Position numbers and translations under genes: made by a program | The notes under the pieces: model-generated | The model's database searches: none | What the model was told of the DNA's origin: nothing | The model's input: only the letters and a program-made list of their open reading frames with translations | In this document: one piece after another, positions 4,659-16,078 of the stretch | How the letters are laid out: each line of letters opens with the position of its first letter | Numbering within the stretch: the first letter of the stretch is position 1 | Assembly: GCA_016839745.1 (NCBI GenBank) | Contig: JAEOTS010000166.1 | Location: 1 to 18,694, forward strand | Direction: 5' to 3' | DNA from: Promethearchaeota archaeon | Lineage (GTDB): Archaea; Asgardarchaeota; Lokiarchaeia; Sigyniarchaeales; SOKP01 | Length of the DNA stretch: 18,694 nt

Positions 4659-5543
4659 TTATATTAAAAGAACACCTAAAAACACTAATAAAAATCCAAG
4701 GATCATATAGAGAGAAGCAATCTTAAAAATGAGGAATGTGAGCTTATTTGAGGGTTTTATTAAGTTCTTTATTACTAAAATTATTATTAAAACGCAACAA
4801 ACACCCCAAATGATTCTTATAATTGCGTTTGCGCCTAGCAGTCTAGCAACTTCGTAAAGTGCTATACTGCTGATGAATGCTCCAATAGCGATAACCCGCA
4901 TGGTTTGGGCTTCCGAACTTACTATTGGCCACATAGGAACTCCCGCATCCTTATAACCTTTAAAATTTCGTGGTATTAATGCTATTGTGAGGATGTGAAC
5001 GGGAATCCAAGCTAAAATGAATATAAGAAATAGGAATCCAATCCAATCTAAGGTTCCGGTAATCGCTACTCTACCAGCCCAGGCGGGAAGACCACCCGCA
5101 ATTCCACCAAAAATTATGCTATATTTAGTTCTTCTTTTTAATAGTATGGTATATATTACAACATCGAAGAAAAAACCGAAAAATATAATTACAGCTGCTA
5201 TCCAATTGAGCGTTAAGAACGATAGAAACACTCCCACTACAGTTAACACTATTCCTATTATAAGGGCTATAGAAGGGGAAATTTTACCAGTTGGTAATGG
5301 GCGTTCCTTTGTTCGTTCCATGATCGCATCGATATCTCTGTCAATATACATATTTAATACGGTCGTACCTGATACGGCGAAATATAGCGATATTACCAAA
5401 TGTAATAGGTTAAACCAATTAATCTCAGCGGCATTGCTAGCTACCGTAATTAAGTAAGACAAAACTCCAGTGTAAACTAAAAGAATAGTCTGTCTTGCTT
5501 TTATTAGATTTCCAAAGAGAGAGAGTAGGTTTTTTAGGTTCAA
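4659..5543 (-). CDS. ctaB: Protoheme IX farnesyltransferase (heme O synthase), UbiA family
   Basis: Signature motifs LNMYIDRDIDAIMERTKERPLPTG, YTILLKRRT..SIIFGGIAGGLP, WIPVH and YKDAGVPM. TTG start. Confidence 0.93.
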   Translation of the reverse strand: MNLKNLLSLFGNLIKARQTILLVYTGVLSYLITVASNAAEINWFNLLHLVISLYFAVSGTTVLNMYIDRDIDAIMERTKERPLPTGKISPSIALIIGIVLTVVGVFLSFLTLNWIAAVIIFFGFFFDVVIYTILLKRRTKYSIIFGGIAGGLPAWAGRVAITGTLDWIGFLFLIFILAWIPVHILTIALIPRNFKGYKDAGVPMWPIVSSEAQTMRVIAIGAFISSIALYEVARLLGANAIIRIIWGVCCVLIIILVIKNLIKPSNKLTFLIFKIASLYMILGFLLVFLGVLLI

Positions 5544-5682: not shown

Positions 5683-7215
5683 TTAAACTGTCTTTTCGGT
5701 CAGAATCTGGGGTTTAGAAGCTGGTCCTCCGTGACGAGTTGGTGGCAGCGTTTTTACATTTTTACCAAGCGCGTACAATCCGATGACAAAACCTACTAAG
5801 AGAAACCATACTCCTATAAATGTAACAGTCCTAAAGAGTTCAAAATTTTCCAATGGTAAAGGACGTACCATATGCATCATTGCGAAAGGAAATGTTAAAT
5901 TAAATCCGATAAAAAATATCCAACCTAGGATTTTTTTTAATCGACCTTTAACCTGGAAAAAGTCAATAGCGTGTACCATCAACGCCACAGCGATCATGAC
6001 TGCCAATTGATGCCAATGTGCTACATTAAAATTATATTCCAATGTTACCATATCATGTAATCTATAATATTCGTCTGTAGTAAGCCCAACATAGATTTGA
6101 GGGAAAACTAAAAGTTGTGCTATCATAAGAAGATAATAATATGACATCTTTACAGGTTCACTAAACAAAGCTCTAATCTTTTGTCCGCGCGATGCATCTC
6201 GGTAATCGTCTCCAAGTTTATCTTTAATAACATTCTTCAAGCCAATTATTGACATAATTAATGTCCCAAGGATCAATAAACCAGCACCCACCCATATTAT
6301 ATAGTGGTTTAGAACCCAAGCACCATAAGATAATGTTATAACGCCAATTGGAGTAAACAATAAGATATATCTAAAAATCTTACCTCTCATTTTACTCGTA
6401 CGGAAGGCAACCAACATAACCATAGCTGCTGATTGAGCTAGCTGTATGTGAAGGTGACCAACTATCATGTCTTGGACGATATCGTGATGTCCCCCAAATG
6501 TAATACCTTTTCTAATGATTGCTTCTGCCAAGAACGCAATAGGCTCACGGCCTAGACCCCAAATAGTACCCGTAAAGTTTTCAATGGCGGAAAGGGCTCC
6601 GTATATTGCTGAAACCATAATGCATATCGCTAGAACTACAAGGTTGAAATACTCTAAGTTCAATCCACGGAATGTAGATCCTCTTGGATTGTGTTTAGGA
6701 AATCTACCTTTCACTGGCCAAGCTGAAATAATAAACACTATTCCACCGATAAAAACCAACAGTAAGCCGAAAGTGAAAAGTTCGTGGAAAAGTCTAATAC
6801 GTGTATAGGCAAAAAGCATTCCGTTTATACCTACGATAAACGCACTAGGTACTAAAAGAATTTTTAAAGTTGGAAGCAACTTCGGACGGATTTCGTAGTG
6901 TTCTAATATCCAGAATACGTTCGCTACAAAAAAAGGTAAAGCTAACGAGTGATATATCATGACAAGACGAGCTGTTCTTGATATTACGTCGTCGTTAAGG
7001 AAGAAAGGCCAGATCGGCTCTCCCCCTATTAGAACAGTCAAGGGTTCGGAAAATGTCATATACCATAGAACTTGAATAAAAACGAATACGAACAAAACAT
7101 AATGTATCTTCTTAAAACTCGTTTGTATTTCAGGTTTCATCTCCTGCGTTTCCATTGAGGATTCTCGACCAGTTTGCATTGGGACTGTTTCTGTTTCTAT
7201 TTCTATTTTTAGCAC
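5683..7215 (-). CDS. Protein A: 12-TM heme-copper-oxidase-subunit-I-like protein lacking canonical CuB/FeB ligands
   Basis: Twelve hydrophobic segments. His occur in helix II (YH89SLALP), IV (FH144EL), VI (GH254LH256) and X (VAH400WH402). Helix XI WIFFIGFNLTFP resembles COX1 FxGVNLTFFP. The exact start is uncertain. Confidence 0.65.
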   Translation of the reverse strand: MLKIEIETETVPMQTGRESSMETQEMKPEIQTSFKKIHYVLFVFVFIQVLWYMTFSEPLTVLIGGEPIWPFFLNDDVISRTARLVMIYHSLALPFFVANVFWILEHYEIRPKLLPTLKILLVPSAFIVGINGMLFAYTRIRLFHELFTFGLLLVFIGGIVFIISAWPVKGRFPKHNPRGSTFRGLNLEYFNLVVLAICIMVSAIYGALSAIENFTGTIWGLGREPIAFLAEAIIRKGITFGGHHDIVQDMIVGHLHIQLAQSAAMVMLVAFRTSKMRGKIFRYILLFTPIGVITLSYGAWVLNHYIIWVGAGLLILGTLIMSIIGLKNVIKDKLGDDYRDASRGQKIRALFSEPVKMSYYYLLMIAQLLVFPQIYVGLTTDEYYRLHDMVTLEYNFNVAHWHQLAVMIAVALMVHAIDFFQVKGRLKKILGWIFFIGFNLTFPFAMMHMVRPLPLENFELFRTVTFIGVWFLLVGFVIGLYALGKNVKTLPPTRHGGPASKPQILTEKTV

Positions 7216-7540: not shown

Positions 7541-8290
7541 TTAATCTTCTAATTCGATTCCTGGAATTGCAAAGTTCCATCTTTTAGGAACGAATGTTCC
7601 CCAAGCAAAACATAATCCAGCTCCAAGGTAGACGAATGGAAATACATTAAAGACTATTAGTAAATATTCGTCAGTCGCAAGAATACCAAGGGTTGCAAGA
7701 GCTAAGAGAACTCCGACGAGACCCATTAGAACACCTGCTAAAGTCATTGCCAGTGCTGAAATTCCGTTTTCTTCTCTCGTTTGTAATGGAAGCCAAATTA
7801 TTAAAATTGCACTTGGAACGTGTAAAATCATTACTAAAATCGGTACAACTAATGCGGGAACGACAATCACTGTAGCTAAATTCTCAAGTTCAACAAGTTT
7901 AAAGAATCCTATTACGAGGGACATAATAACAACATAGTATAATAGGTAATTTCCCATTTTATCCTTTTCAGGCTTCACATTTTTAAATAGACCTACAGCA
8001 AACAGTCCTACCATTAATGCGTATAAAGTTGCTGGTACAGGATCTAGGAAAGTCGTGAAACTTCCACTAAATATAGCTACGTGAGTATTTATCCAAATCA
8101 AAGTGAAGGAAATACCCCAATATAAATGCGCAGGTTTCCTAGTAGTGAGATAGGAAGACAACAGAAATAACGCGAAAATAATCGCGACAATAGCTACCAT
8201 CCAGAATGCAATTTCGGCTACCTTTCCACTTCCAAAGTAAGTACAGAAATCCCACGGAGTATCCGGACAAGCTCCTTGAAATAACACCAT
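7541..8290 (-). CDS. Hypothetical 7-TM membrane protein
   Basis: Seven hydrophobic segments and an N-terminal CPDTPWDFC. The track's GTG at 8302 is part of the SD-like GAGTGA, so the ATG at 8290 is preferred. Confidence 0.75.
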   Translation of the reverse strand: MVLFQGACPDTPWDFCTYFGSGKVAEIAFWMVAIVAIIFALFLLSSYLTTRKPAHLYWGISFTLIWINTHVAIFSGSFTTFLDPVPATLYALMVGLFAVGLFKNVKPEKDKMGNYLLYYVVIMSLVIGFFKLVELENLATVIVVPALVVPILVMILHVPSAILIIWLPLQTREENGISALAMTLAGVLMGLVGVLLALATLGILATDEYLLIVFNVFPFVYLGAGLCFAWGTFVPKRWNFAIPGIELED

Positions 8291-8506
8291 TTTTGATATC
8301 ACTCTTTTTTTATATTTTTTTTTATAATTTAATTTATTAATTATTTAAAAAAGTTTTTTTCGATGTTTTTTTTAAATAATAGTTACTATTAGAAAGATGG
8401 TTCTATATAAAAGTTTGTTGTCCACTTTTTTCCCTTATGTATTAATGTGAATGCTTATTCATTAGCACGATATATTAGAATAAAATTACAGCAAAAAAAA
8501 TGAATC

Positions 8507-9705: not shown

Positions 9706-10404
9706 TTAGTGCTTTTCTTCTGTTAATTTTGGTGCGTTCTTTTGACCTAACTTCGGTAAGGTAAAAAGTAATGCAAATACTATGATCGTCGAGATAGTTG
9801 CAGGCATCGCTGCTTCAGCGAAGGTTAGATGTGGGTTATAGTAAGGTAGTCCAACGTAATAATGCTCGGTTAGGACTCCCCCGAGAGAACATTTAACAGA
9901 TACAGTAATATTAGTCCGACCTTCACCTAGATATGGTACTATTTTTCCGGTATTTTCGTCAAACGGTGGATCATCTATCAGTTCTCCGGTTTTCTGGAGT
10001 CCTGGCAAAGGAAGAATATATATAGGTAGTGTGTGTGATGTAGTAATCTCACTCACATTAGTTGGTTGTTTAGAAAACGCATGATGGTTTGTTTCGTTGA
10101 ATGTGTATGTAGGCGCTTCTGTAGGAAGTATAGCAATAGCATAATTATCCTGATCATCGAAATATCTGTGATGATGATGATCTTCCCACACTTGTGTGAC
10201 ATTAACCCACACATCTATCTCGTATATATAGTGATACTCAGGATCCGAAACTCCGTGGGTAAGTCTAATGCTAAGTTCTTGCGCACCTACATCATATTCT
10301 AAATCTATATTTATAGGAGCATGCGCGTTCACGTTTAGAAAGCTCATCGTAATGCCGAGAAGCAGAAAAACGGACAAAGCGTAAAATATTTTTTTCTTTG
10401 ACAT
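9706..10404 (-). CDS. Exported, C-terminally membrane-anchored His-rich protein with a superoxide-reductase (neelaredoxin)-like ligand pattern
   Basis: Signal peptide ending VNA|HAP. Candidate ligands are H28, H50 (THGV), H58 (HYI) and C172 (CSLGG). Also an HHHH insert, four N-x-S/T sequons and a C-terminal hydrophobic helix. Confidence 0.55.
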   Translation of the reverse strand: MSKKKIFYALSVFLLLGITMSFLNVNAHAPINIDLEYDVGAQELSIRLTHGVSDPEYHYIYEIDVWVNVTQVWEDHHHHRYFDDQDNYAIAILPTEAPTYTFNETNHHAFSKQPTNVSEITTSHTLPIYILPLPGLQKTGELIDDPPFDENTGKIVPYLGEGRTNITVSVKCSLGGVLTEHYYVGLPYYNPHLTFAEAAMPATISTIIVFALLFTLPKLGQKNAPKLTEEKH

Positions 10405-10610: not shown

Positions 10611-11963
10611 TTATTCGATGACGAACGGAATAATGTCTTCTGAAAATTTTTCCCGTTTAAATATTGCTTGGTAAACGAATAAGGCTAAGAAGAGAAGTAG
10701 GTCAAAGAAGAGAAGGAAAAAACCACCGAAAATTATATGGGTTAAAGTCGTTTCGCCAGCGACATCGAGGGGCGATCTTAAGAAAAAAAACGCTGCTGCA
10801 GGAAAGACAATAAAAAGACTTGCAAACAAGGTCCATCCAAACACCTTCCGTAATTTGTTTTTGGGTACCATGTTGTGTATAATTATACTGAAGACTACGA
10901 TAGCACCGAGAGTAATAAGTACATGGGGGTGTCCGGTAGCAAAATTGCGTTCAACAGGGTAATTCAAAATATTTCGATATGCTTCAAGGTCTGTAACAAT
11001 CAACAGTCCTGGTATTACTATAATAAACCCTGATAAAAAGTAAGTAATGAACATGCTCAGTCTCAAAGGATTTTTTAATACTGCAATAATTTTAGAACCA
11101 ATAGAGGAGGAACCGTAATCAGAACCGAGTTCTTCTTTTGATACTTTTATCCAACCGTCAAATGCAATTATTACGCCTGTAAACAAGATAAACGCCCGCG
11201 CGGGCATTAATATTGCATTCGCTGCTTTACCCATAACTAACATGAGGAAATACCCAGCTGTCATGGCAATAACACCAATTAATAGCAACCAAAGCCCAAT
11301 CTTAGCGAATTTACCTTTAACTCCTGTGTATCTGAAAGTAAGAATCAACACTCCAGTTAACAATAGTGCGTTCATTAATCGCATGTGAAAACTAGCGAGT
11401 TCTTGGAATAATTCTTTGGGAGTTCCCCGGAACAACACATACTCTACCTCTACTAAGAAGAAAGGCTCGTCAATTTCCAGCATTATAACCGCAGCAACAG
11501 CTCCGAATATTGCGAAGACGATCATGCTTCCTATGACAATTACAGCACTTAGATGTAGGATATTAAAGCCACCAATTTTAGGAATATCCCGATAATATTC
11601 GCTTTCTTTTACTTCTTTTCCAGGAATAAGGCCGTAAACTAGTAATACGGCACAAACAAATAAGAGACTTAACCCAACCAGAAAAAGATGATGTAGAAGA
11701 AAAAGATCTGTATAAGCCCAAAAAATAGCACCGATTCCCCCACAGACTCCACCTAGTGCTGCCGTATACTTAATTAGTTTAATGACTTTCGAGCGCATCT
11801 CTATTATATCGATAAAGAGCAGCGAGACAATCCCAATAAATGGTGTTGACATTGAGTGATATGTCATAATTACTTCATGGGCTTGGTGATGAACATCCGG
11901 CATCAAATAATGAAATGAAAACGCTACACCAAGGTTCACTACGATAATTATTGCTAATACCAA
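10611..11963 (-). CDS. Protein B: 12-TM paralog of protein A (HCO-subunit-I-like, no CuB/FeB ligands); may start at 12002
   Basis: Ungapped matches to protein A: MTYH36SMSTP vs MIYHSLALP; AYTDLFLLH91HLF vs AYTRIRLFHELF; FQELASFH193MR vs VQDMIVGHLH; YR...ERNFATGH345PH347VL vs YR...EYNFNVAHWHQL. Confidence 0.65.
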   Translation of the reverse strand: MVLAIIIVVNLGVAFSFHYLMPDVHHQAHEVIMTYHSMSTPFIGIVSLLFIDIIEMRSKVIKLIKYTAALGGVCGGIGAIFWAYTDLFLLHHLFLVGLSLLFVCAVLLVYGLIPGKEVKESEYYRDIPKIGGFNILHLSAVIVIGSMIVFAIFGAVAAVIMLEIDEPFFLVEVEYVLFRGTPKELFQELASFHMRLMNALLLTGVLILTFRYTGVKGKFAKIGLWLLLIGVIAMTAGYFLMLVMGKAANAILMPARAFILFTGVIIAFDGWIKVSKEELGSDYGSSSIGSKIIAVLKNPLRLSMFITYFLSGFIIVIPGLLIVTDLEAYRNILNYPVERNFATGHPHVLITLGAIVVFSIIIHNMVPKNKLRKVFGWTLFASLFIVFPAAAFFFLRSPLDVAGETTLTHIIFGGFFLLFFDLLLFLALFVYQAIFKREKFSEDIIPFVIE

Positions 11964-12089
11964 GATTAATAACTTATTTGAAAATCTACTTTTAGATTCG
12001 ATTTTAATTTCACCTTTGTTTTAAGTAATATTTTCAATTTAAATTTATGAAATTCTAATTGAATTATTTTTAAAATTGATCATAACCGT

Positions 12090-12139
12090 TTATAAGTCTT
12101 AACCTTATAATTTTATCGGATTTACTCCAATTAGAGTAA
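12090..12139. promoter_or_regulatory. TATA-overlapping inverted repeat plus a second short inverted repeat upstream of protein B
   Basis: TTATAAG-tcttaac-CTTATAA (12090-12110) and TTACTC-caatta-GAGTAA (12122-12139). Confidence 0.35.
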
Positions 12140-12182
12140 CATAAAAAAAGATATGGCTAAAGATGAATGAAAAAGATTTTGT

Positions 12183-13421
12183 CTATACTGGTTTAGGATT
12201 TTCTTTTTTATTAAGATTTAAAAATCTTAATAAGATTATAAGAAAAGCAGCAACTATCGACGGTACTATAATTCCCAACATTAAGGCTGCCTGTTCAGTG
12301 TAGAAGTCGTAAACATGACCAGAAATTGGCGCACCAATGGCTACACCAGCAACTATCAGAGCGTAGAATGTTCCTGTTGCTACACCGCTCTCAGAACCTT
12401 TGGTGTTCTCTTTAACAGCACCTGCTGAAGAAGGAAAAATCAATCCATGCCCAAGCCCCAGAAAAACCATTCCTATCATAGGTATTGGAACTTCGAAAGA
12501 AATCATGAATACTCCAAACGCAGATGCAACCAACAATAACCCAATCAGCATTACTTTAGTGTAGCCTATCTTGTCGCTCAGTATACCTGCTGGATAGTGA
12601 ATAAGTATCGAAAAGATCACCATTATGCTCAAAATCATGCCCGTTTGACCAACCGTGTATGCTGCGTTTTCTAACATTAGCGTATATACTGCTGTAACGA
12701 TTCCCATGTTAAACATCATCGCTAATATTGAAAAGTAAGGACTGATCATAGATTTTCGTAAAACTATTTTTCTAAATGTTTTAAACTCTTCTTTAAATGA
12801 TATTTTCTCTTTAGAAGGTTGATAGATCGATGGGAGAAAGAAAGAAGTGAAAGACATAATAAAGAGCACAATTGCCATTATTAAAAACAAATTACTTTCT
12901 CCAATTATTTGAGCAACCATACCTCCTAATAAGAAGCCTATTAAATTTGAAAATCCAATAGATATACCGTATAGTGCCATCCCCCTACCACTCCGTCTTT
13001 GGGTAGTGGCGTCGGAGATATAAGCCATTGTAGCAGGGCCCCCAAAACCCCCTCCTATTCCATGAACGATTCTACCAAATAATAAAAATAATGGATCTTG
13101 AGCGATAGCATATAATAACATCGAAATACCGTCTAAAAACACTCCAATGGATATTAACTTATTTCTACCGATTTTATCAACTAATCTACCAAATACTATA
13201 TTTGAAGGGATGTGTACCATGGAGTAAACTCCCACAATAAAGCCTGTAAATATAATTGACGCACCCAATTTCCCCGCATATGTCGCAATAATAGGAATTG
13301 CTGCGTTACTATCAAAATTGACCATAAAAGATAGGGTAAGTATTAAAAAAATATGCTTTCTCTTAATTATCGAGGATTTCTGAGTTTGAGCCTCGGTTGA
13401 ATTTAATAAGTTCTGTGTCAT
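12183..13421 (-). CDS. MFS transporter (DHA1-like)
   Basis: 12 TM. Motif A GRLVDKIGR and its repeat GILSDKIG; also GRIVHGIGGG and RGMALYG. SD AGGTG. Confidence 0.92.
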   Translation of the reverse strand: MTQNLLNSTEAQTQKSSIIKRKHIFLILTLSFMVNFDSNAAIPIIATYAGKLGASIIFTGFIVGVYSMVHIPSNIVFGRLVDKIGRNKLISIGVFLDGISMLLYAIAQDPLFLLFGRIVHGIGGGFGGPATMAYISDATTQRRSGRGMALYGISIGFSNLIGFLLGGMVAQIIGESNLFLIMAIVLFIMSFTSFFLPSIYQPSKEKISFKEEFKTFRKIVLRKSMISPYFSILAMMFNMGIVTAVYTLMLENAAYTVGQTGMILSIMVIFSILIHYPAGILSDKIGYTKVMLIGLLLVASAFGVFMISFEVPIPMIGMVFLGLGHGLIFPSSAGAVKENTKGSESGVATGTFYALIVAGVAIGAPISGHVYDFYTEQAALMLGIIVPSIVAAFLIILLRFLNLNKKENPKPV

Positions 13422-13558
13422 GTATTTTCACACCTAATCTTGTTTTAGGAGTATATTTAGCTATTTGTACAAAAAAGAACTTATCATCAAAATTAAAATT
13501 TTTTATTATAATTACATTATTTTATATATCAATTTTGACTATCTTAAGTGATTCTATC

Positions 13559-13894
13559 ATGAGCCCCCCTAAAAGCCGCTTAGAACAAGAACACAAAACA
13601 ATCAACACTATGATTCGGATGTATTGTAAACGCTTTCATGACTGTGACGATGATTTATGTCAAGAATGCACAGATCTTTTTCAATACGCTGAGGAACGAT
13701 TAAAAGGTTGCCGCTTCGGCGAAGAAAAACCTACTTGCGATACATGTACAGTTCATTGTTATAAACCTGACATGAGGGAGAAAATACGAACAGTCATGCG
13801 TTACGCAGGACCAAGGATGATATATACGCATCCAATTATGGGATTTCGACACTTATTTAAAAAAATGAAAAAAAATGAAAATTTAGAGATCTAA
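13559..13894 (+). CDS. ygbA: YgbA family ('nitrous oxide-stimulated promoter') Cys-rich protein
   Basis: RLEQEHKTINTMIRMYCKRFH...LCQEC..L..YAEERL..C.FGEEKPTC..C.VHCYKP.MREKIR.VMRYAGPRM...HP matches the family consensus. The likely start is the ATG at 13559, not the track's 13397. Confidence 0.9.
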   Translation: MSPPKSRLEQEHKTINTMIRMYCKRFHDCDDDLCQECTDLFQYAEERLKGCRFGEEKPTCDTCTVHCYKPDMREKIRTVMRYAGPRMIYTHPIMGFRHLFKKMKKNENLEI

Positions 13895-14776: not shown

Positions 14777-15580
14777 TTAGAAATTGAAAGCATATGGCCA
14801 AAAATCTGGAAACCCTAACTCAAGTATCAGAATTACAATTACGACCGCCAGAAAAATTGTGAAGTTATCCGTACCCTTAGGTGATAACGCTTCTACCACA
14901 GTAGCAACTATACTGACAACAATTATCGGTAGAATCAGTGTAACTATATTAATATGTGGAACTTCTAGAGAAAAGATCAAGACGAGAATAGAGCTTACTA
15001 ATATCGATCCAACTAGCATCCCGATACTTCCTACAATAGTTTTTTCGCTCCCTTTAATTCCAAACTTTTTTTCTCCGCCAAATTTGCGCCCGATAATGTC
15101 TGCTAACCCGTCTCCACCCGAAACGCACCCAATAATAAGTAATGCTGTAGGGTTTGCGTTATCTATGCCGGTAGACGGTACGTAAAACCAGAAAAAAGTC
15201 ATTAATACCATAACAATTGCATAGTAGAGCGTTCCTCCAAGAAGTTCTCGAGGGTCTCCTGATCTCGACATTGATGCCACAAAACTTTCGTTTTTCATCA
15301 ACCCCGTACCGATCGCCACGAATTGTAAAACAAATAATAACGGAACTATTACAGCAATGTAATGACTAATAACTTCGCCTGTAAAAAGCATCCACGTAAC
15401 AACGAATATAGGTCCCGCAAAAATATGGACGAATTTTCTCGTAATGATTTGAGAAACTTTTCCCTTTTTTTGCATCAAACCATTGATTTGTACCAACGCT
15501 AACAATATAACAATAGAGATAACGGTAGCAATTATGTCCCAAACAAAAGCCAAATCATTCCCAAACGGATTAAAAACCAC
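14777..15580 (-). CDS. Phytol/farnesol kinase (VTE5/FOLK-like CTP-dependent polyprenol kinase)
   Basis: TRKFVHI, SMSRSGDPRELLGGTLYY (close to the plant VTE5/FOLK motif), GDGLADIIGRKFG, KT..GS and VEALS..GTDN. Confidence 0.85.
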   Translation of the reverse strand: MVFNPFGNDLAFVWDIIATVISIVILLALVQINGLMQKKGKVSQIITRKFVHIFAGPIFVVTWMLFTGEVISHYIAVIVPLLFVLQFVAIGTGLMKNESFVASMSRSGDPRELLGGTLYYAIVMVLMTFFWFYVPSTGIDNANPTALLIIGCVSGGDGLADIIGRKFGGEKKFGIKGSEKTIVGSIGMLVGSILVSSILVLIFSLEVPHINIVTLILPIIVVSIVATVVEALSPKGTDNFTIFLAVVIVILILELGFPDFWPYAFNF

Positions 15581-15628
15581 GATTAATCACTAATCATATA
15601 AAAAAATTATTTTATGATAAATTAACTA

Positions 15629-15637
15629 TTATAAAAG
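15629..15637 (-). promoter_or_regulatory. Probable TATA box (CTTTTATAA) for the kinase pair
   Basis: About 50 nt upstream of the GTG at 15580. Confidence 0.4.
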
Positions 15638-15728
15638 TTCCTAAATTAAAAATAATTCCTAAAAATCTTAGAAGATATAAGTAAAACAACTTCTCTTACA
15701 CGATATTAACTTCATTTAGGTTTTCTTT

Positions 15729-15751
15729 AAAAAAAAAATTAAAAAAAAAAA
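15729..15751 (-). terminator. Oligo-T terminator of the tusA-yeeE-dsrEFH operon
   Basis: A10-TT-A11 on + after the stop at 15779. Confidence 0.6.
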
Positions 15752-15778
15752 TGAGTTTAAATTCTTTAAATTTCTTGA

Positions 15779-16078
15779 TTACATATTTATAATGCTATCG
15801 TTCTCAAAGATTAAGTCAATTACCTCGTCAGAAGCAACCAATCTGATATTATCAGAAATAAACTTATTCAATCCCCGGGTATCTATATGTTCTTTGCACG
15901 CAGCAACCTTCTTCTTTTGATTAAGAGCTTGTGAAATCGCTTTATTAGATTTATTTGCAAAATAAACCGCGTTTTGAAGTAAAAGTATGGTAACATCGTC
16001 ATCATCTGTGTGCTCCATCGCAAGTTCTACTCCTGTAATGTCTTCACTCGTTATAAAATATAAAACTTTTTTGCCCAT
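15779..16078 (-). CDS. dsrH: DsrH/TusB family sulfur relay subunit
   Basis: ILLLQNAVY and EHIDTRGL; 99 aa; third member of a DsrE-fold trio. SD GGAGGT. Confidence 0.75.
   Translation of the reverse strand: MGKKVLYFITSEDITGVELAMEHTDDDDVTILLLQNAVYFANKSNKAISQALNQKKKVAACKEHIDTRGLNKFISDNIRLVASDEVIDLIFENDSIINM

Follow-up and report, generated by a model that had tools for sequence, protein, structure and literature searches.

The window analysed here is an 18,694-nucleotide stretch of DNA from a Loki-type Asgard archaeon, an anaerobe. It carries two genes, A and B, which the original prediction described as differently wired paralogs of one family resembling heme-copper oxidases (HCOs). The locus raises the question of what B does with an oxidase-like fold in which two histidines of A are replaced. 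Our preferred answer, to which we lean with a little more confidence than doubt, is that B is a two-heme core subunit without a second metal, an alternative core within the oxidant-handling module of A and not an obligate partner of A. The two genes and the probable extension of B are located as follows.

10611–11963, minus strand: B, a 450-aa open reading frame (ORF) from TTG, encoding a 12-helix membrane protein with a predicted heme-copper oxidase subunit I fold.
11964–12002, minus strand: probable N-terminal extension of B, in frame, without ATG, GTG or TTG, beginning with ATC at 12000–12002.
5683–7215, minus strand: A, a 510-aa paralog with the common family pattern H89, H144, H254, H256, H304, H400 and H402.

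Conservation and probable start of B

The B ORF translates into 450 aa with no internal stop, and the G+C content of the window is about 33–37%. The relatives of its Asgard-type genes carry the labels Promethearchaeota, Lokiarchaeota and Thorarchaeota. Sixty-six homologs of B were found at identities of 57–90%, none of them named and none with Pfam domains. Across 24 homologs with 59–84% identity to B, more than 100 alignment columns are invariant, which argues that B is a real, functional and conserved gene under purifying selection. H91, H193, R195, N249, R256, E338, H345 and H347 are invariant in these B-type homologs (24/24), and H36, H92 and H363 are kept in at least 90% of them. The collection of homologs that the original prediction had suggested as a check thus upheld all five of the histidines it named, four as invariant (H91, H193, H345 and H347) and H36 at the 90% level.

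The TTG codon is probably not the true start of B and makes the protein too short, since the conserved helix I extends upstream of it in frame. The frame remains open for 19 codons beyond TTG, giving 469 aa from stop to stop, and after TAA it reads NKGEIKIESKSRFSNKLLI. The B homologs begin helix I with a matching R-x-S-x-KLLI, and the ATC at 12000–12002 stands 7 nt past GGTGA (12010–12014, minus strand). The automatic gene call for B (P0004) has 395 aa and drops helices I and II, both of which are conserved. In the genome to which the window belongs (3.53 Mb, 89% complete), A and B are the only members of the family.

Residue differences between A and B

A and B are true paralogs. The pairwise alignment gave a significant match, with a BLASTP E value of 2e-29 and 26% identity over 396 columns with 25 gap positions in total, and the two genes are separated by 3396 bases, in agreement with the claim of a second HCO-like paralog 3.4 kb away. 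Helices II–IV, VI and X are ungapped, as had been claimed of the blocks around them, and the gap positions fall elsewhere. The residues that distinguish B, whose codon coordinates were verified, are listed below.

11874–11912, minus strand: B-specific His-rich loop between helices I and II (H18, H25, H26, H29), predicted to face outward, kept in B and replaced in A.
11856–11858, minus strand: H36 in helix II, candidate axial ligand of the low-spin heme.
11688–11693, minus strand: H91 and H92 at the outer start of helix IV, H91 being shared with A (H144) and H92 being specific to B.
11379–11387, minus strand: helix VI motif H193-M-R195, in which H193 is family-wide and R195 takes the place of the second His (A H256).
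11196–11219, minus strand: helix VII/VIII turn, with N249 for A H304 and the B-specific invariant R256, following a six-residue insert.
10923–10931, minus strand: H345-P-H347 in helix X, both His invariant and aligned by hhalign with H419 and H421 of CyoB.
10776–10778, minus strand: R396 in the helix XI/XII loop, aligned by hhalign with CyoB R481 and invariant in A and B.

Five histidines had been proposed as kept between the paralogs, and all were found at the positions claimed, forming the B/A pairs H36/H89, H91/H144, H193/H254, H345/H400 and H347/H402 in the BLASTP alignment. The accompanying YR (B 329–330) and E338-x-N-F are likewise common to both proteins. H36 is invariant in the A+B alignment and retained in at least 90% of the 37 diverse family members. 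The two predicted replacements are also present: R195, within FHMR, stands opposite A H256, and N249 stands opposite A H304. The placement of A H304 inside helix VII did not hold, as the model of A puts this residue on the first turn of helix VIII, in the VII/VIII turn.

The fixed differences between B and A are concentrated at B residues 191–196 and 239–260, the latter including the six-residue insert. B has gained the invariant R195 and R256, together with an outward-facing His cluster (H18, H25, H29 and H92). Most of this cluster lies in the His-rich loop that had been noticed before helix II; the stretch (residues 18–30) reads VHHxAH across the B family and is absent from A.

Relation of B to heme-copper oxidoreductases

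AlphaFold models were built from shallow family alignments of 24 and 32 rows, and reached a pLDDT of 82.9 with a pTM of 0.82 for B and a pLDDT of 82.2 for A. In the B model, helix II spans residues 27–53, helix IV 88–112, helix VI 185–213 and helix X 332–365. H36 sits nine residues into helix II, and only three residues separate H91 from the outer end of helix IV.

Both models were searched with VIA-align against 48,161 chains. The same ten chains ranked best for A and for B, and all are HCO or nitric oxide reductase (NOR) catalytic subunits: cbb3 CcoN, cNOR NorB, mitochondrial and bacterial A-type subunit I, ba3 subunit I, bo3 subunit I and two qNORs. Their Z scores were 20.5–12.9 for B and 21.8–14.1 for A, with 360–415 residues aligned along the full length; among unrelated chains, the highest Z was 12.3 for B and 9.5 for A. 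The B model alone matched the ten chains over 362–406 residues, covering model residues 1–449, and so has the subunit I fold. Foldseek gave oxidase matches that were weak but uniform.

At the level of sequence, the relationship is picked up by profile-profile comparison alone. No Pfam or NCBIfam model matched A or B, and the Pfam COX1 model (PF00115) at E 0.01 matched neither A nor B nor any of the 37 diverse members. When HMMER profiles were compared with solved structures, the B profile found nothing and the diverse profile found chance-level matches only, none of them a solved oxidase. We then used hhalign to compare a profile of the 37 diverse members with 31 sequences of HCO subunit I; E. 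coli CyoB was one of these, and its known residue numbers were checked. The alignment had Prob 93.6 and E 2.2e-7 over 342 columns. Shallow profiles of B only and of A only against a narrow oxidase alignment gave Prob 0.1 and 9. The full-length structural matches and the profile-profile comparison support the oxidase-like fold that had been claimed, and on the strength of these models B is placed in a very divergent, uncurated branch of the heme-copper oxidoreductase superfamily.

Some ligand positions could be followed directly into CyoB. In both hhalign alignments, one of them global, H345 and H347 fall on CyoB H419 and H421, the ligands of the high-spin and the low-spin heme, respectively, and R396 falls on R481, the heme propionate Arg. 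N249, and with it A H304, falls on H333 or H334, the two CuB histidines, depending on the alignment. The register of helix VI relative to canonical oxidases differed in three alignments, which put R195 on H284, H193 on H284 and H193 on E286, and hhalign placed CyoB H106 on B H29, seven residues off H36 in helix II. Since these registers differed or shifted, the correspondences proposed for helices VI and II are based on conservation and helix depth only.

The CuB or FeB of HCOs has three His ligands, one in helix VI and a His-His pair in helix VII; helix VI also carries a cross-linked Tyr in O2 reductases and an active-site Glu in cNOR and qNOR. This three-His set is not complete in B, which has H193 only, with R195 and N249 where its relatives have His. 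In helix VI of B (FHMRLMNALL), neither Tyr nor Glu follows H193 within two turns, the register relative to the canonical helix VI being unsettled.

B as the derived copy

A profile of A and B searched against 1.84 billion representative proteins gave only 160 matches, 38 of them below 1e-30. The ESM Atlas neighbors are unnamed clusters only, mostly from Chloroflexota, and our literature searches found no description of the A/B family. Nearly all of the 37 diverse members combine a helix VI HxH with a His at the VII/VIII turn; HxR with Asn is confined to the B cluster. In a maximum-likelihood tree of 71 sequences, B forms one clade (SH-aLRT 100%) on the longest inner branch (1.92), nested in a clade with 99% support that also holds Asgard A-type, Heimdall and Hodarchaeales members, all with HxH plus the turn His. 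Because its relatives keep HxH and the VII/VIII His, B is the form that lost two putative metal-site histidines. The tree and this residue pattern indicate that B is a derived, fast-evolved duplicate of an A-type gene that arose within the Asgard archaea. Its nested position, the clustered switches and the gain of the invariant R195, R256 and His cluster suggest that the duplicate was neofunctionalised.

The different wiring proposed for the active-site helices of B was thus borne out, as HxR plus Asn against HxH plus His. The roles assigned to the two copies were reversed: A had been read as serving electron transfer only and B as holding an open catalytic site, and the pattern of A turned out to be the common state. 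Judged by sequence, A is the better candidate for holding a second metal, since A H304, the His of the VII/VIII turn, aligns with a CuB His of CyoB.

A third small derived subgroup (P0232, P0239 and P0294; locus L032) has H-x-S in helix VI and no VII/VIII His; its helix IV carries a Tyr, and the Glu before helix X is missing. One of its members, P0239 (858 aa), carries a C-terminal PD40 beta-propeller.

B might have kept its second metal by moving the site onto residues that it shares with A (His91, His193 and Glu172 or Glu338), and so be a binuclear enzyme with a new set of ligands, which comes near the non-canonical site of the original prediction. H91, H193, E172 and E338 do not vary in either A or B; H193 is also fixed in every diverse member (37/37), and B adds H92 beside H91. 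The helix IV position is nevertheless F, Y, Q or S in more distant members of the family, and H91, so near the outer end of its helix in the model, may be too shallow to reach the distal pocket. Taken together, we consider such a relocated metal site unlikely. The same residues bear on the original argument that conservation of the helix IV and first helix VI His between diverged copies makes the site functional: their conservation stands, and a functional site is compatible with it.

Genomic neighborhood of B

The neighboring genes that bear on the role of B are the following.

9706–10404, minus strand: exported protein, anchored at its C terminus and bearing motifs like those of superoxide reductase (hereafter SOR-like), encoded immediately downstream of B.
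7541–8302, minus strand: polytopic membrane protein of 253 aa, single copy in the window.
4659–5543, minus strand: heme O synthase (UbiA family), directly downstream of A, Pfam UbiA 3.7e-45.

The gene order is kept in relatives at about 55–60% identity, and runs YgbA_NO-like gene, MFS transporter, B, small exported protein, A, heme O synthase, DUF420-like gene, FAD_binding_4 dehydrogenase and Fer4/CCG. The MFS transporter is a conserved upstream neighbor of B. The YgbA_NO-family gene (13397–13894, plus strand) is a conserved divergent neighbor of the MFS–B pair in relatives; the family is named for an E. coli gene induced by nitrosative stress.

The exported SOR-like protein lies downstream of B in all of the B loci seen (5/5), either immediately or one gene later. 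It has H-x-P after the signal peptide, followed by HGVxDPxxHY and C-x-x-G-G, and no Pfam match at E ≤0.01. Its homologs occur in 83 of 301 Asgard genomes, often beside oxidase-fold genes, so that it may be a redox partner at the outer face. It also adjoins A in genomes that have A only, and this distribution rules it out as a partner specific to B.

In relatives, a polytopic membrane protein of 225 aa lies beside B and a paralogous copy of 244–252 aa lies beside A; in one such locus (L003) the two copies are at 11873–12550 and 15180–15914. These proteins of 225–253 aa may be accessory subunits. The 232-aa and 253-aa neighbors in the window were considered as paralogs of each other, which they are not.

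The heme O synthase candidate scored 207.7 bits against TIGR01473, for which the cut-off is 210.3. A UbiA-family gene adjoins family members in Asgard archaea, in Hodarchaeales and on one bacterial-looking contig; the window copy alone was scored as a heme O synthase, and the other UbiA neighbors are presumed to be such. Bacterial-looking members (L028, 7001–10341; L031, 7001–9358) adjoin, or are fused to, an FGE-sulfatase domain with a UbiA gene nearby, and L028 has a Crp/Fnr-type regulator nearby as well. In MK-D1, the homolog DSAG12_01126 (L033, 5249–13116) lies between a flavodiiron protein gene and the same FAD_binding_4 plus Fer4/CCG pair that the window carries, and no UbiA gene is adjacent to it.

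Co-occurrence of A and B

Genes of the HxH and HxR types were counted across genomes. Of the 301 Asgard genomes sampled, 48 carry A-like family genes and only two carry true B, namely its own genome and one of the same genus. Most genomes that carry an A-like gene therefore have it without B, and a 138-kb contig (L044) has B with no A within 10 kb. Because A is usually found without B, and B on one contig without A nearby, an obligate A–B heterodimer is unlikely on this distribution.

The same counts bear on whether B could be a non-catalytic partner of A, that is, a pseudoenzyme in a heterodimer that relays electrons or stabilises A. B has lost the putative catalytic ligands, and at five of the six B loci, including the window, B and A share one conserved island; such a role is nevertheless quite improbable, given the carriers of A that lack B, the L044 locus, and the separate membrane protein copies that accompany B and A in relatives. 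The gained invariant R195, R256 and His cluster also suggest a new function over decay.

Heme supply

A canonical COX1 gene is absent from the genome that carries B and from all genomes of its family (0/68), and was found in four other families of the phylum only. The genome of B (89% complete) also has no gene for ALAD, PBG deaminase or heme A synthase. ALAD is likewise missing from five genomes of the genus that carry A, including three that are 100% complete. As the genus lacks these heme synthesis genes, heme would need to be imported or scavenged, and scavenging is further suggested by a heme O synthase that is present where ALAD, PBG deaminase and heme A synthase are not. Judged by their gene content, these organisms look like heme auxotrophs that still modify heme.

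The idea that B works without heme, as an oxidase fold reused for a transporter, a heme- or metal-handling protein or a sensor in a heme auxotroph, would suit the lack of tetrapyrrole synthesis genes in the genus, the conserved MFS transporter upstream and the missing COX1 match, but is very improbable, as even very divergent members strictly retain the helix X HxH, the His of helix II and the propionate Arg, which is hard to explain without hemes, and heme O synthase is linked to the family in archaea and bacteria alike.

Proposed function of B

Herein, we set out how B would work as a two-heme subunit. From the paralogy, fold, conservation, derived status and synteny described above, we infer heme binding, the absence of a second metal and a role in oxidant handling. 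B keeps the residues that hold two hemes in oxidases, presumably here too: His36 (helix II), His345 and His347 (helix X) and Arg396 (following helix XI). Arg195 and Asn249 replace two histidines that its relatives have near the CuB/FeB ligand positions. B would accordingly bind one six-coordinate and one five-coordinate heme, of type b or o, and the second metal would be absent. The heme would be scavenged and then farnesylated by the heme O synthase of the island. The open five-coordinate heme would face a polar pocket made of His193, Arg195, Asn249 and Arg256. Electrons would enter at the outer face, where the His cluster of B is predicted to lie and where the exported SOR-like protein is expected as well. 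B would thereby form an alternative core subunit of the same membrane module as A, handling O2, NO or reactive oxygen; this role is proposed from the neighboring genes only.

A bolder form of this proposal, which we put forward tentatively and regard as rather unlikely, is that B is the first natural oxidase-fold protein to work with hemes only. The guanidinium of R195, together with R256, N249 and H193, would then lie where CuB or FeB sits, and B would be a peroxidase-like or nitrite/NO-type membrane heme enzyme, or a gas-binding protein, for oxidant defence in Loki-type Asgard archaea.

Significance

In the current account, Loki-type Asgard archaea are without terminal oxidases, unlike some Heimdallarchaeia (10.1101/2025.02.26.640444). 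The island described here reveals a hidden oxidase-fold family in Loki-type Asgard archaea, the cultured MK-D1 (DSAG12_01126) included, which is linked to heme O synthase; some lineages have it in two copies, the second with a remodelled active site. Should these proteins turn out to bind heme and to react with O2, NO or reactive oxygen, the family bears on how the anaerobic relatives of the eukaryotic ancestor coped with oxidants. For enzymology, B is a natural experiment, in which an oxidase scaffold has kept its putative heme ligands and two metal-ligand positions are now Arg and Asn.

Comparison with known systems

The best structural matches of both proteins are the cbb3 oxidase subunit CcoN (3mk7_A; Z 20.5 for B and 21.8 for A) and the cytochrome c NO reductase NorB (4xyd_A; Z 19.1 for B and 20.8 for A). 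Like CcoN and NorB, B has the HxH pair in helix X, with H36 as a candidate counterpart of their helix II His, and its 12 helices superpose over the full length. Unlike them, it shares only 8–10% identity with these chains, has no Pfam COX1 match, lacks the His-His pair of helix VII, and has Arg and Asn at the His positions of its relatives. No cytochrome c subunit gene was noticed beside B.

The likeness to CyoB lies in the profile alignment, in which H345 and H347 fall on H419 and H421 and R396 on R481, and in the genetic linkage of the family to heme O synthase, which recalls cyoB–cyoE of E. coli. B is unlike CyoB in having no equivalents of H333/H334, Y288, E286 and K362. It also differs from cytochrome bo3 in that no homolog of the cupredoxin subunit II was found, and the host is an anaerobe without heme synthesis genes.

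Changes to the metal ligands themselves have precedents. The HCO signature is a histidine sextet, and in putative NO dismutases (NOD), which are qNOR-like, a metal-ligand His is replaced by Asn (PMC3413370). For the gNOR enzymes, the replacement of an active-site His was reported as the first in any HCO family (10.1101/2021.10.15.464467). Like gNOR and NOD, B is a paralog of a standard enzyme with changed metal-ligand His. Those enzymes alter one His of the sextet and remain recognisable by sequence as COX1/NOR; B keeps four of the six, namely the three putative heme ligands and a single metal ligand out of three, and its branch goes unrecognised by sequence models. In conclusion, the change in B goes further than those of gNOR and the NO dismutase candidates, in which a single His is known to be altered.
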